A stretch of 8,881 bases of DNA from a virus. Lineage: Duplodnaviria > Heunggongvirae > Uroviricota > Caudoviricetes. The stretch covers positions 1-8,881 of the IMG/VR virus record IMGVR_UViG_2529293214_000003; one strand, given 5' to 3'. Below are positions 3,001 through 8,881 of this stretch, in pieces; position 1 is the first letter of the stretch; the number at the start of each line of letters is the position of its first letter. The position numbers were made by a program.

Positions 3001-6000
3001 AGCGGAATTGAAAACGCCTCCGGCTCCAGCGTTGCCAGAACGTCGCTGGCAGTTGGCGTTAATCCACCAATCAGCAGGCCACCGATAACGCTCGCTTCGA
3101 TATCCTGTCTCATGCAATCCCCCTGTCTGCAAACTTCCCTTCCCGGACTCCCGTTAACGAGTCTTCTCTCAGCAGGTAATCAAAATCTGCCGTCCAGCCC
3201 GTGTCGTTGTCTCCGAAGTAAAACGGCTTGGCCTGATGCACAAACGCCCTGACATACGCTCTGAAACCGTCCACGTTTGGCGTTTTCAGTTGCGGGATGA
3301 TTTTCTTCAGGCGGCGTTTGCGTTTCTCGTTGACCTCAACAGCATGTGGAAGTCTGTCACCGACTTCTGTGTTGTAGGCGTTCAGGAAGGATTCGTAGTC
3401 GATTCGTTCTGCCTTGCGACGTTCAGGTTTAACCTGCCCATCGCCTCCCCCATTGGGGGGTAGGGGGGTATTATTTATATTCTTGTTAATACCTTCTTGT
3501 TCATGATGTGCGGTTGTTTGTGCGGCTTCATGTGCGCTTTCATGTGCGGCATGTTCGCTGAAATCCGCGCCATTACTGGCTTCGTCATGTGCGGCATCAT
3601 GTGCGGTTGTTTGTGCGGCTTCATGTGCGGGTGAATCGTCCATTTTTTGAGCATATTCATGGTAATTTGTGATGGTAATCACACGACCTTTTTGCTTCTC
3701 TCCATCAATGGTGATCATCCCCTCTTTCACAAAAACCTGAAGCATCCGCTCAACCTGATCGCGGCTTGCTGGCTTGCCATGCCTGTCGCATAACTGAAGA
3801 CCTAAATCAGCTGCTGTCACAACCAGTTGACCGGGTTGCAGATGCCATTCATGACCTTTGAAATTCGCTTTGTATGGCTTTCTGGTGGCATTCAGGAGAA
3901 GGTTTTCCCACAGGGTGCGAAGATAAACATCTTTCGCCCATGACTGTTTCAGAATGCTCCGGTACAACGGAATGTAACCAGTTTTCTGGTTCTCCATCCT
4001 GTTGCTCCTGCGCTCGTGTGCGGCGCTGAAATCGTAGATTTTTGCTGTATTGCTCATAACTACCTGCCTTGACGAAAGACCTTAAGAACATCGTTAAACT
4101 GACTTACGGATATGTCTTCTTTGAGCAGCTTTTCCAGAAATGCGTTTGGAATGAACGTATATCCCTCCTCTTTTGGTAGAGACGGGAGCAACGCCCTCGC
4201 CTCAGCCTTCAGAAGCTCAGTTCTGGCAACTTTCACAAAAGAGATTTGAGTTCTTTCATCAATGGAACGAAGGAAGCGCAAACGCTTAGCTTCTTTGTGT
4301 GTATCAGGTGGATTAAAGCCTTTGTTTCGCATATAATTACCTCGCTGGATGTTGTTAAAATTCCATTTGTATTTGTTCAGAACGCTCGGTTGCCGCCGGG
4401 CGTTTTTTATTGGTGAGTCCATCAAGCGCATACTTAAAAGCCCTGCTAATCGGACTGATGTCTGATGCCATTCCGAAAGCACACAAGACCGAAGCAATAA
4501 ACCTCCAGTCTGTTCTGCTTATCTTCGATTCATGACAGCCAATCATCTTTGCCAGACCGCGCTGGGTAAGCGTTGACAGGTTGATGAGTAAATCTGTTTC
4601 TGCGCGATCAACGTCACGCTGTGATAGTTTGCTGTAACTTGTTTGTTCCATTTCTTACTATTTCCATAGGTAAATAATCACTAATACTCATCTTTCGATG
4701 AGTGATTAATTAGTTACCGCGTTGTCGGCGGTGCAGATTGATAAAGAGCGGTGTTACTTATGCTGCCTGATTCGGTTTTGGAAACAGGTGTGGTAAATCT
4801 GGGCGGATTTCGTAAGCCTTGATCTGCCCTCCAGTGGCGTTAACAATGGCGGTAACTTTCTCTGGAGAGACCAACCCGCCTTTCAGCCATTTATGTACTG
4901 CTGGCTGCGTTACACCACACTTGTCGGCAAGGCGCTTTTGGCTACCGACAATTTTCAAGGCTCGTTGAATTACTAAATTCATGAGCATACCTCTTGTGGA
5001 CATTACTTATAACCAAAGATAACTCAAGTTATAAAAAATAGCAATAACCTTTGTTATTTTACTTTGGATAACCGTAGTTATAGATTTGTGGGTATGAAAA
5101 CATTCGCAGAAAGACTAAATGCAGCCATGAGCTCAGCAGGGGTGTCACAATCACAGCTTGCTGACATGGTTGGAATATCTCAGCCAGCCATACAGAAGAT
5201 GTCATCCGGTAAAACAAACGGATCTCGCAAGATGGTTGAATTAGCCAATGCTTTAAAAGTACGCCCTGAATGGCTTAGCTCAGGTATTGGTGAAATGAGG
5301 GATGGTGCACATGAAGAGCCATCGAATGTGCGTGAGTCATCTTTAAAAGCGGTGGTATGGGAAGACATAAAAAGAAACGATGACGAGTTTGTCGCATTGC
5401 CTCTTCTTAATGTTTCTCTTTCCGCCGGGAGTGGTAGCTGTGAGTTAGAGGAATCATCTGAGTTCTCTTTGGTTTTCAGAAAGTACTATCTGAAAAAGAT
5501 GGGGGTATCTGAAAGCTCTGCCAAGCTGGTTAGGGTGATAGGCCAAAGCATGGAGCCAACCCTTCACGATGGTGATGTTGTTGGAGTCAACACGCAAGAC
5601 ACCACCATCAGAGATGGTAAAACCTACGCTATTTGTCAATCTGATTTACTAAGAGTAAAGACATTAATAGCCACACCTACATCCGTGATAATCAGATCAA
5701 TAAATCGCGAAGAGTACCCTGATGAAGTAATGGATAGAGATGAGTTTCATGAAACAGTAAGGATTATTGGCAGAGTATTCTGGTCATCACATAGCTGGTA
5801 ACCAGTGGCCTGAAGAAACGTTTGGGTGAGGAGGATAGATGGCGTTCACTGACCTTGAATATCAAGCGGTCAAAAAAGAAGTTCACCAATTCATTGAAAG
5901 CATAAGGCCGCCTGAACATATCCGCAATGAACTGGATATTGTTTATAGCATCAATGACCAAACGATAGATATCGGCGAACAGCGCCCCGTGTGGCAGGGC

Positions 6001-8881
6001 AACCCAGGTGAAACAAACATCCTGCCATCAGCAAGAATCAAGTACATACGTTCTCTGGATAGATGGAAAATCTATTGGATGCGGAAGGATATGAAATGGC
6101 ATCAGTACAGTACTGAACTTTCGCTGACTGATGCGCTTGAGCTTGTGCGTGCTGACCCGGATTGCTGCTTCTTCGGATGAGTGAAGAGACATTTGGGTGA
6201 TGGATGGTCGCAGAAGTGCGGCTTTTAATGTAATCGAAGAAAAGTAATCCTTGTAAAACTTGATTTGACTGTATTGTCACAAAGAAAGGAATCAACGATC
6301 GTTTCTTGGGTCTTGATTTGTTTTGACGATCAAATTAGTATTGCCTCATCAACTGTATGAGGCTTTTTTATGCAAACCAAAAGCTACACCATCAAAGCAT
6401 TTCAGGACTTCTTACAGATGCTTCCTGAGCTTGGTATCGTCAATGATGCTACAGCCCGCAATCTCCGTGACTCTTCCCTGCGCCTTCTTACTGTTCTTGG
6501 GTCGGATTTCACCGATGCCGATATCCGTGATTATAGCGTTGCCAACTTAGCAAGTTCGTACGCAGACTCAGCAGAAAGCAAACCCTCTGAATCATCTTTG
6601 CAGGCATACAAAAGCCGGATGCAAAGTGCTATTGATAAATTTATCTCCTACCAGAATGGTGAGATTAATGTGTCAGTTGGTGATGTAAATAAAAAAAAGG
6701 AGCGTAAAAAGATGGCACCTAAGAAGAAGGCGGTAGCTGACGTACAGGTTGGTGTAAAAACATTTGAACTGCCGATTCCATTGCGCGGAGATCTTATCGT
6801 CACCATTGGCAACCTGCCTCGCGACCTGACAAAAGATGAAGCCAAGCGTATCAGTCTGATTGTGGAATCTTTTGCGATGATTGATGGCGGAACAAAAGAA
6901 TAAAGCCCCGAGGGAACGGGGCTTTTTGGGTCGGAAATATATCCAGTATTTCCGAAGTGTATGGAGGATTACCTACCGCTACACCCTTGGCAACCGCAAG
7001 CCAAGGATAGCGGTTCTCCCAACAAACTACAACCTGTTCGGGTAAACAGGCTGTATACAAAAACAGGAGAAAAGCTATGGCTCACGATGTTAATCGCGAT
7101 GACTTCATCTACGAACACGACAAGCCGGTTTATGTGCGCAGTTACTGCCGCATACGTTTCGGTGAGCTCGAACATGTTCGTCAGCACTTCCGCTCTTATC
7201 CGAGCTGCTGAAAATAACTAAATCTCAAACCCGGCCACCGAGCCGGGTTTTCTTTGCCTTACGATCCCCCCACCTAAAAAACATAACCAATTGTATTTAT
7301 TGATGTAACTCGCTAAACCATGCAGTTATGATCCCTGCCCCATCACCTTCATCCTCAACATTTACAAAAATAAAATACCTTTGTTATCCATTATTTATAA
7401 CTTATTTACCATGAATTATAAATTAAGTTATTGACCACACCTATAACCTGGGTTATCTTTAAGCCATCAGCAGGACGCTGGTAGCCAAACGGAACAGATT
7501 GGCAGGCTCTTTAACTTCGATGTGGCGCTGACAAAGCGCAAACAGATACCAAACGAGATGGGTTTGGCGGTGATGTGAATTGCAGCAGCAACGACAGCAA
7601 CCAGAAGATCAGCATCTGGCGCATCACCACCAAAGCCATTTCACATGAGGAAAATATCATGACGGTAATCGTGTACGGGAAATCAACATTCGCAGGAAAT
7701 GCCAAAACTCGCCGTCATGAGCGGCGCAGAAAGCTGGCTATCGAGCGTGATTCCATCTGCAACATCATCGATTCGATCTTCGGCACAGACAGTGAGGAAG
7801 CTGTTCAGGAAGCCCCGAGAAAGCGTTTAAGCCTTTCTGAAAAAGCAATATCACTCGGAAGCCTTCGCTGCAAGAAGTCAAAGTCAGAAGAGGTCGAGCG
7901 TAAACAGAACCGTATTTACTACCGCAAGCCACGCAGTGAAATGGGTGTGACTTGTGTTGGTCGCCAGAAAATGAAATTAGGCAGCAAACCACTTATTTGA
8001 GAGGAATTAATATGTCATCAATCCGCTTAACTACGAGAATGAAAGAGGAAATCGCTCGTAACGCTTTAATTAAGTCCGGGGTGTTCACTGAACTTGAAGA
8101 AGTAACAAAGTTAAAGAACCAGCTTGCACTTGACGCCAGAGTTATTGCGTTTGGCGGTAAAAAGAAAACTGAGGAAGTGGATCAGTTATCATCCAAGTTG
8201 GTAGCTATAAGTGAAGAACTTGGAAAGATGGGATGTTCATTTTACTCATACGATGTTAGTTCTACTTCAATTTATCTGACTGTATCTGGCAGAAGGGTTG
8301 GATGGCATTCATATGGGAAAGACGGCAACGGCAAAGATATATTGCTCCCTACTCCGATCAAAGATAAATGCATGTTTGACGCAGAACACGAAATAACAAA
8401 AAGGTTTGATGAAATCTGCGCATTGCAACAAAAACTTGAAGCCAAGAAAAAGGATATCGAATCAAATGTATGGGCTGCTTTGAACTCAGTCACAACAGTT
8501 AAGCGACTTATTGAAGTTTGGCCTGAAAGCAAAGAATTGCTACCAAAAGAAGCAGATAAAGCAAGTACAGCACTTCCTGCTTTACGGGTAGAAGATTTGA
8601 ATAAGATGATTGGACTTCCTTCCGAGGCCGCATAGTCGGCCTTTATTTTTGGCATAAACAACAGAATAAATACTGCACTGTGTATTCATTCCAACGAGTG
8701 AATACACGGAGCAATGTCGCTCGTAACTAAACAGGAGCCGACTTGTTCTGATTATTGGAAATCTTCTTTGCCCTCCAGTGTGAGGGCCTTTTTATATGCA
8801 TACCAATAACGCTTCACTCGAGGCGTTTTTCGTTATGTATAAATAAGGAGCACACCATGCAATATGCCATTGCAGGGTGGC

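Follow-up and report, generated by a model that had tools for sequence, protein, structure and literature searches.

What is the small gene that directly follows a cI repressor gene in this stretch of phage DNA, is it made together with the repressor, and what might it do? The stretch analysed, hereafter the window, comprises 8,881 nucleotides (nt) of a Caudoviricetes virus (IMG/VR record IMGVR_UViG_2529293214_000003, positions 1 to 8,881). At 5839-6180 it contains an open reading frame (ORF) coding for 113 amino acids (aa), which an earlier note made from the sequence alone had described as part of the repressor operon, in the manner of lambda rexA. The rexA and rexB genes of lambda are abortive infection genes co-transcribed with cI from the maintenance promoter PRM. 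Judged by its homologues, the ORF encodes a real protein and is an accessory gene belonging to the DUF3024 family, not an orphan, and it is very probably co-transcribed with cI. Our overall reading, to which we give a little less than an even chance, is that DUF3024 is a lysogen-expressed accessory gene of the cI operon, with phage exclusion as its likeliest role.

The protein matches the Pfam family DUF3024 (PF11225) with 108.7 bits for a cutoff of 24.9, its residues 4-113 aligning with positions 2-112 of the 112-position model. It also falls in phrog_3467 (E 4.5e-67), in the PHROG category without assigned function, and matches the PADLOC candidate PDC-S43 (E 7.2e-42, residues 1-113 on model positions 1-115). 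Its amino-acid sequence is 98.2% identical to that of L0084 of the reference Shiga toxin 2 (Stx2) phage 933W. The earlier note had implied that homologues were absent, which was mistaken, as the remote homology check identified a full-length member of DUF3024 and PDC-S43. It had been right to set the protein apart from Rex, the hhalign probability being ~0.1% against RexA and against RexB. A profile search returned 1,326 clusters at 50% identity, nearly all of them stand-alone proteins of ~115 aa, from Gammaproteobacteria, Betaproteobacteria, Desulfobacterota, Bacillota, Verrucomicrobiota, Nitrospirota and other groups.

The features around the gene that bear on its expression are the following.

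5094-5801, plus strand: cI-type repressor with an XRE-type helix-turn-helix (HTH) and an S24 autocleavage domain (Peptidase_S24 E 2.7e-17; HTH_3 E 7.8e-7; phrog_4, transcriptional repressor)
5803-5829, plus strand: cI-end relic, CAGTGGCCTGAAGAAACGTTTGGGTGA, left from the 3' terminus of a lambda-type cI; translated, it would read QWPEETFG-stop
5811-5829, plus strand: 19-nt direct repeat, copy 1, inside the cI-end relic (PEETFG-stop)
5839-6180, plus strand: DUF3024 gene, 113 aa (PF11225, phrog_3467, PDC-S43), orthologue of 933W L0084
6182-6200, plus strand: 19-nt direct repeat, copy 2, TGAAGAGACATTTGGGTGA, 2 nt past the DUF3024 stop codon
6206-6223, plus strand: weaker terminator-like hairpin
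6343-6369, plus strand: terminator-like hairpin with a 7-bp stem (6343-6363) followed by T6 (-10.1 kcal/mol, z = -1.96), a candidate tM

The junction between the two genes is as the earlier note had described it. The cI stop codon TAA (5799-5801) is followed by a gap of 37 nt (5802-5838) and the ATG at 5839, and a GAGGAGG Shine-Dalgarno sequence is present at 5828-5834, 4 nt upstream of that ATG. The N-terminal M-A-F is invariant in 25 homologues, which supports this start codon. Neither a terminator scan nor RNA folding revealed a terminator between cI and the ORF, again in agreement with the note; the RNA 5785-5850 folds no better than shuffled sequences (z = +0.67), and a T-run is absent from it.

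In the upstream alignment, homology among DUF3024 loci with different cI alleles starts only ~36 nt before the ATG. This shared leader consists of the cI-end relic and the Shine-Dalgarno sequence, the relic being the sole upstream sequence common to loci with different cI. The corresponding end of lambda cI reads cagtggcctgaagagacgtttggctga. In a group of prophages with lambda immunity (L082 type), whose cI is 96-97% identical to that of lambda/HK97, the repressor gene runs into the leader segment, and its TGA lies within the Shine-Dalgarno sequence, 9 nt upstream of the DUF3024 ATG. The leader is thus coding sequence in the ancestral arrangement, which leaves no room for a conserved promoter, so that transcription very probably arrives through cI. 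Together with the 37-nt gap, the lack of an intervening terminator and the precedents of 933W and BTP1, this makes co-transcription highly probable. In 933W, stk is cotranscribed with cI, and the Stk protein aborts HK97 infection (PMC3564112); in BTP1, bstA occupies the same slot and is transcribed from the cI promoter according to RNA-seq data (PMC7067206).

The gene might instead have its own promoter in the 3' part of cI, or be silent in lysogens, but we regard this as very improbable. A single weak sigma-70-like match (9/12) was found, inside cI at 5664-5692, against 4.8 expected by chance, and the phages with identical DUF3024 do not have this part of cI in common. An intergenic promoter is excluded in several lineages by their 9-nt cI-DUF3024 gaps, and the consensus Shine-Dalgarno sequence and purifying selection (see below) argue against silence.

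The 19-nt repeats suggest how the gene came to lie there. The two copies are identical at 17 of 19 positions, with two matches in the window for 0.00 expected by chance, and the motif is also found 3' of the DUF3024 stop codon in most of the other lambdoid loci, among them 933W, L082, L144, L147 and L152. As read from these alignments, the repeats delimit the DUF3024 gene as a 371-nt cassette, for which they may have served as a recombination handle. A cassette bracketed by cI-end repeats would explain both its first position after cI and its movement between immunity types.

A relic of the reciprocal kind is present in lambda itself. Directly past its own cI stop codon (NC_001416, ~37190-37226), lambda carries ggcaaggtgttctggtcggcgcatagctga, which would encode GKVFWSAHS-stop and resembles the C-terminus of the window cI (GRVFWSSHSW-stop, 5770-5801). 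The window thus has lambda's cI end past its own cI, and lambda has a window-like cI end past its own. These reciprocal relics suggest that cI alleles have repeatedly been replaced by recombination at the 3' end of the gene.

How general is the linkage to cI? We counted 85 phage and prophage loci, made up of IMG/VR hits and annotated phages. An S24 cI-type repressor gene lies directly upstream on the same strand in 81 of them (frameshifted in one), mostly at gaps of 9, 37, 60 or 66 nt. At 70% identity, the upstream repressors form 14 sequence clusters. Four repressor types, those of the window, of 933W, of lambda/HK97 and of a 933W variant, are followed by DUF3024 copies with 97-100% identity to one another; the variant aside, these repressors share ~22-36% local BLASTP identity or no detectable similarity. 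The synteny with cI is kept in Morganella-type phages, at 33-39% DUF3024 identity, and in the P22-like Salmonella phage SE1. Altogether DUF3024 was found in 144 phage records and in 227 of 5,426 complete Escherichia coli genomes (~4%). The ratio of non-synonymous to synonymous substitution rates (dN/dS) of 0.07-0.19 for copies 56-98% identical indicates strong purifying selection.

The interval between the operators in which the gene lies is laid out as follows.

Minus strand: cro-like gene, on the opposite side of the right operator (OR) from cI
5019-5032, 5044-5057 and 5068-5081: OR, three 14-bp palindromes ATAACnnnnGTTAT between the cro-like gene and cI
6370-6903, plus strand: orf177 (phrog_2602, function not assigned there), variable cargo in place of 933W L0083-stk-L0081
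6905-6927, plus strand: strong hairpin and T5, 3' of orf177
7077-7211, plus strand: ORF of 44 aa, annotated as hypothetical gp19 in phage SH2026Stx1
7230-7255, plus strand: strong hairpin and T-run, which with 6905-6927 brackets the 44-aa ORF between orf177 and the left operator (OL)
7418-7456: OL operators, two copies of the same palindrome as in OR with a PL-like TTGACC between them, upstream of N
7659-8000, plus strand: N-type antiterminator (N_peptide E 1.6e-25)

The palindrome ATAACnnnnGTTAT has six matches in the window (three at OR and two at OL) vs 0.21 expected by chance. The OR region, 5019-5081, must contain the promoters PR and PRM, and analogous oR1-3, pR and pM are annotated in the 933W record. 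With these palindromes as OR and OL, the DUF3024 ORF lies within the immunity region, on the cI strand and at the position of lambda rexA/rexB.

Downstream, the hairpin at 6343-6369, if terminating, would leave a maintenance operon of cI and DUF3024 alone, and the PRM unit of this phage may indeed comprise only these two genes. The same structure holds the Shine-Dalgarno GAGG of orf177 (6359-6362) and has a T-run that reaches up to the ATG of orf177 at 6370; one structure could therefore both end the cI transcript and mask the initiation of orf177 translation. With the two further hairpins that bracket the 44-aa ORF, the cI-OL interval may comprise three separate transcription units. The window has no kinase gene and no L0083-stk-L0081 block, but orf177 instead. 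Among phages, the cargo 3' of DUF3024 varies, with L0083 and Stk (PD-T4-6 family), a ParA-like AAA_31 ATPase, DUF6932 (PDC-M63A) or orf177 (differing genes at L153 5401-5880, L154 5359-5955, L140 5448-6554 and L162 3910-5411). This variability agrees with the description of the cI-N interval as a common moron or accessory-locus site (PMC7067206). The presence of Stk and DUF6932 suggests that some of the cargo is defence-like.

What kind of protein is encoded? The Trp/Lys-rich core proposed in the earlier note is real; residues 66-90 read RIKYIRSLDRWKIYWMRKDMKWHQY, and W76, W80 and W87 are 85-100% conserved in 118 family representatives. The C-terminal CC motif is so only in part, C110 being conserved (83%) and C109 variable. 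The other residues conserved in the family are RPP 23-25, R29, E47, R49, P50, A65, K66, Y79, R82, K86, Y90, D106, F111 and G113. The protein is acidic (isoelectric point 5.3), and no catalytic motifs, transmembrane segments or signal peptide were found in its 113 residues. An AlphaFold2 model based on a 25-sequence alignment (predicted local distance difference test score 90.9, predicted template modelling score 0.82) has an alpha-beta5-alpha topology, with a helix at 5-22, five antiparallel strands within 33-93, a helix at 96-105 and a less ordered but conserved tail. From this model we infer that the protein would be a two-layer alpha/beta sandwich acting by binding a partner. Foldseek searches of the PDB and of viral models with this structure gave nothing under E 1e-3. 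A sequence search of the PDB yielded AvrPto matches only, at chance level (E 0.07). A CaaX-like reading of the C-terminal CFFG was ruled out by the presence of the family in free-living bacteria of many phyla.

We propose the following scenario. DUF3024 would be a discrete 371-nt cassette located where the repressor gene ends, without a promoter of its own, and would be the second cistron of the cI message, made from PRE while lysogeny is being established and from PRM thereafter. Its strong Shine-Dalgarno sequence would allow independent translation, and the message would probably end at the hairpin and T-run at 6343-6369, so that cI and DUF3024 would form the whole maintenance operon. The protein would be a non-enzymatic binder; how it binds is speculative, with R49, K66, W76, Y79, W80, R82, K86, W87 and Y90 as the presumed partner contacts. 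Its likeliest role would be that of rexAB, hex, stk and bstA, namely the protection of the lysogen against heterologous phages. We rank exclusion first because of the precedent of the characterised genes of this slot and of the PADLOC candidate status; an anti-phage role, taken by itself and argued by analogy, is a tentative proposal that falls short of an even chance. In decreasing order, we rank exclusion, lysogeny stabiliser or repressor partner, conversion of host physiology, and orphan immunity or anti-defence.

Several observations weigh against exclusion. With 113 aa and neither an enzymatic nor a membrane domain, the protein would be an unusual stand-alone defence factor. In the literature searched, no paper names DUF3024, PF11225 or L0084, and PDC-S43 is named a single time, as predicted for an O157:H7 strain, with no experimental test reported. 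The defence-island signal is weak in this sample. Among 145 immediate chromosomal neighbours from diverse phyla, few match PADLOC models (PDC-S01, S05, S23, S34, DRT, AbiEii and GajB-like), with no recurrent partner and no background rate for comparison. Lastly, Stx2 II-type phages (51 records) carry a decayed copy with two 1-nt deletions and a stop codon at W87. The phage can thus do without the gene, which is what one would expect if it is accessory.

An example of the decayed copy is found in AP005154 at 2469-2802, with 82% nucleotide identity to DUF3024, and the 3' part of the cI gene upstream of it is lambda-like (88.5% nucleotide identity). Truncated database proteins of 84 aa (P0040-P0043) may derive from decayed copies of this kind.

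Could DUF3024 act on the lysogenic switch instead of on other phages? It might tune the switch by damping RecA-stimulated autocleavage of the repressor, as do Hex and the plasmid protein PsiB, or it might be a sensor or partner of XRE repressors. That it is consistently the first gene after cI fits this idea, and that identical DUF3024 copies follow unrelated cI alleles is compatible with a common target, RecA or the S24 core. The same slot in phage 434 encodes Hex, which does exactly this (PMC3564112). The option of a repressor sensor or partner is also hinted at by fusions in which an XRE-type HTH (HTH_19, HTH_25, HTH_3) precedes a DUF3024 domain at the C-terminus. These proteins of 254 aa were found on three contigs of uncultured bacteria or metagenome-assembled genomes (L008 1229-1993, L034 4551-5315 and L167 1640-2404) and belong to two lineages that are 59% identical over their full length. 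In this architecture, DUF3024 takes the place of the C-terminal (S24) domain of a cI-type repressor. Nevertheless, the fusion is rare, and Hex is repressor-specific, whereas the N-terminal and hinge regions of the repressors that accompany the same DUF3024 are unrelated. Furthermore, HTH, S24 or LexA genes are not enriched next to the chromosomal homologues of many phyla, and the gene was lost in the Stx2 II lineage. Taken together, we consider a stabilising role unlikely.

As for other fusions, one protein (P0139) joins DUF6933 to DUF3024. The HTH type and this single DUF6933 type are the only ones that look real; most longer homologues probably have over-extended start calls and contain no extra domain.

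Given that exclusion is our preferred role, do the contexts of the family outside phages support it or favour another function? All-against-all clustering of the ORFs within 3 kb of ~100 diverse loci gave, outside phages, only antisense artefacts of the gene itself, and in a Pfam scan of the neighbours (74 upstream, 74 downstream) no family occurred at three or more loci. The neighbours include toxin-antitoxin genes, integrases and transposases, and the neighbourhoods are compatible with variable or mobile regions. DUF3024 might then be a lysogenic-conversion gene acting on host physiology (stress tolerance, metabolism or colonisation) and making use of the one slot of the prophage that is constitutively transcribed. 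The breadth of the family (1326 clusters, mostly stand-alone in non-phage contexts), the lack of a conserved neighbour and the weak defence-island signal speak for such a function. We nevertheless judge it improbable, about as much so as a stabilising role: the documented, characterised cI-N genes of lambdoid phages all act on phages or on the switch, the toxin-antitoxin, integrase and transposase neighbours point to mobile or variable regions and not to housekeeping operons, and the PADLOC curators flagged the family as defence-associated.

The same neighbours include YoeB, PIN, HicB, AbiEii and Fic genes, and the size, solubility and scattered stand-alone distribution of DUF3024 resemble those of orphan immunity genes. 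The protein could thus be an orphan immunity, antitoxin or anti-defence protein that neutralises a toxin (a contact-dependent effector or the toxin of a toxin-antitoxin pair) or a host defence attacking the prophage. Such a role seems quite improbable, as no toxin family recurs next to it (any one family occurs at 2 of 74 loci at most), polymorphic-toxin domains were not seen, and the structural scores are non-specific. Moreover, anti-CRISPR-like genes are not normally so widespread in the chromosomes of many phyla.

Exclusion thus remains first in our ranking. A bolder proposal, which we consider doubtful, is that DUF3024 is a new, widespread, small non-enzymatic effector wired to the repressor message, either as a single-protein anti-phage factor or as an XRE/cI partner domain that sets the induction threshold of Stx prophages, with the 19-nt repeats as handles.

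The remainder of the window has the gene content of the early-control region of a lambdoid, Stx-phage-like prophage, as which we identify it. Bases 4700-7600 match Escherichia phage SH2026Stx1 at 100% identity, and the whole window is a mosaic whose top matches are chromosomes of O121-type Shiga toxin-producing E. coli (STEC), at 77% coverage. The other genes are the following.

720-3113, minus strand: intein-containing DnaB, 797 aa, DnaB-type helicase
Minus strand: O-like replication gene
Minus strand: cII (PF05269)
7952-8635 (annotated start 8012), plus strand: Nmad5, nucleotide-modification-associated domain 5 (PF18757 E 4.2e-71)

The halves of the window DnaB align at about 1-210 and 563-767, with the intein in between. 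The intein carries a LAGLIDADG homing endonuclease, residues ~220-272 resembling the gp41-1 intein and 364-454 resembling PI-SceI. Nmad5, directly after N, is an unusual resident of the early left operon.

Part of this picture was already available. Lysogen-expressed accessory genes in the repressor operon are textbook knowledge, the family is catalogued, and the operon position in 933W was annotated in 1999. The earlier note had missed the large known family, the 933W annotation and the terminator-like hairpins 3' of the gene. Our analyses add the cI linkage across 14 repressor clusters, the cI-end relic in the leader, the flanking 19-nt repeats and the HTH fusion. The finding mainly confirms the rule that the cI-N interval houses lysogen-expressed accessory genes, and it yields a well-defined candidate, which is present in most 933W-like Stx phages and is probably produced by all lysogenic cells. 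Should exclusion be true, DUF3024 would shape which phages, therapeutic ones included, can infect STEC; should it modulate repressor cleavage, the induction of Stx prophages, and hence toxin release, would be affected. A function would be the first for a family of >1,300 sequence clusters across bacterial phyla.

How does the locus compare with known systems? The closest relative is L0084 of 933W, with 98.2% identity, the same position directly after cI, and the shared ~36-nt leader and Shine-Dalgarno sequence. The order in the 933W record is pM, cI, L0084, L0083, stk, L0081 and tM, which places L0084 upstream of the putative pM terminator. The two phages differ in their repressors, the window cI being unrelated (~26% BLASTP identity to the 933W-type cI), and in their cargo, since the window has orf177 (phrog_2602), past terminator-like hairpins, and not L0083, stk and L0081.

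With lambda rexA/rexB, the gene shares the slot between cI and OL/PL, the strand of cI and the absence of a terminator after cI. In prophages with lambda/HK97-type cI (96-97% nucleotide identity), DUF3024 lies exactly at the position of rexA. Nevertheless, it has no sequence or profile similarity to RexA or RexB. Lambda Rex consists of a sensor and a polytopic membrane protein, whereas DUF3024 is a single small soluble protein whose model has no long hydrophobic helix, and rexA begins 112 nt past cI vs 9-66 nt for DUF3024.

Hex of phage 434, expressed from PRM, excludes P22 and prevents the RecA-mediated cleavage of repressor (PMC3564112). The likeness drawn here is one of position, that of a small protein gene immediately 3' of the repressor gene on the PRM transcript, and Hex shows that genes of this slot can act both on the switch and on other phages. 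Unlike DUF3024, Hex is predicted to have 158 aa, overlaps the cI coding region and is specific for the 434 and P22 repressors.

BstA of the Salmonella phage BTP1 and Stk of 933W (a PD-T4-6 kinase) likewise have their genes in the cI-N interval; in lysogens these genes are transcribed from the cI promoter, and they cause abortive infection of heterologous phages. Both are far larger and have recognisable functional domains, in contrast with DUF3024; in 933W, the DUF3024 gene is a separate gene upstream of stk. The match to the PADLOC model PDC-S43 is over the full length of the hidden Markov model, PDC entries being computational candidates. Finally, the gene differs from a classical moron in that no room is left for a conserved promoter of its own, terminator-like hairpins being present only downstream, and its GC content (0.45-0.47) is not distinct from that of cI (0.43-0.45).

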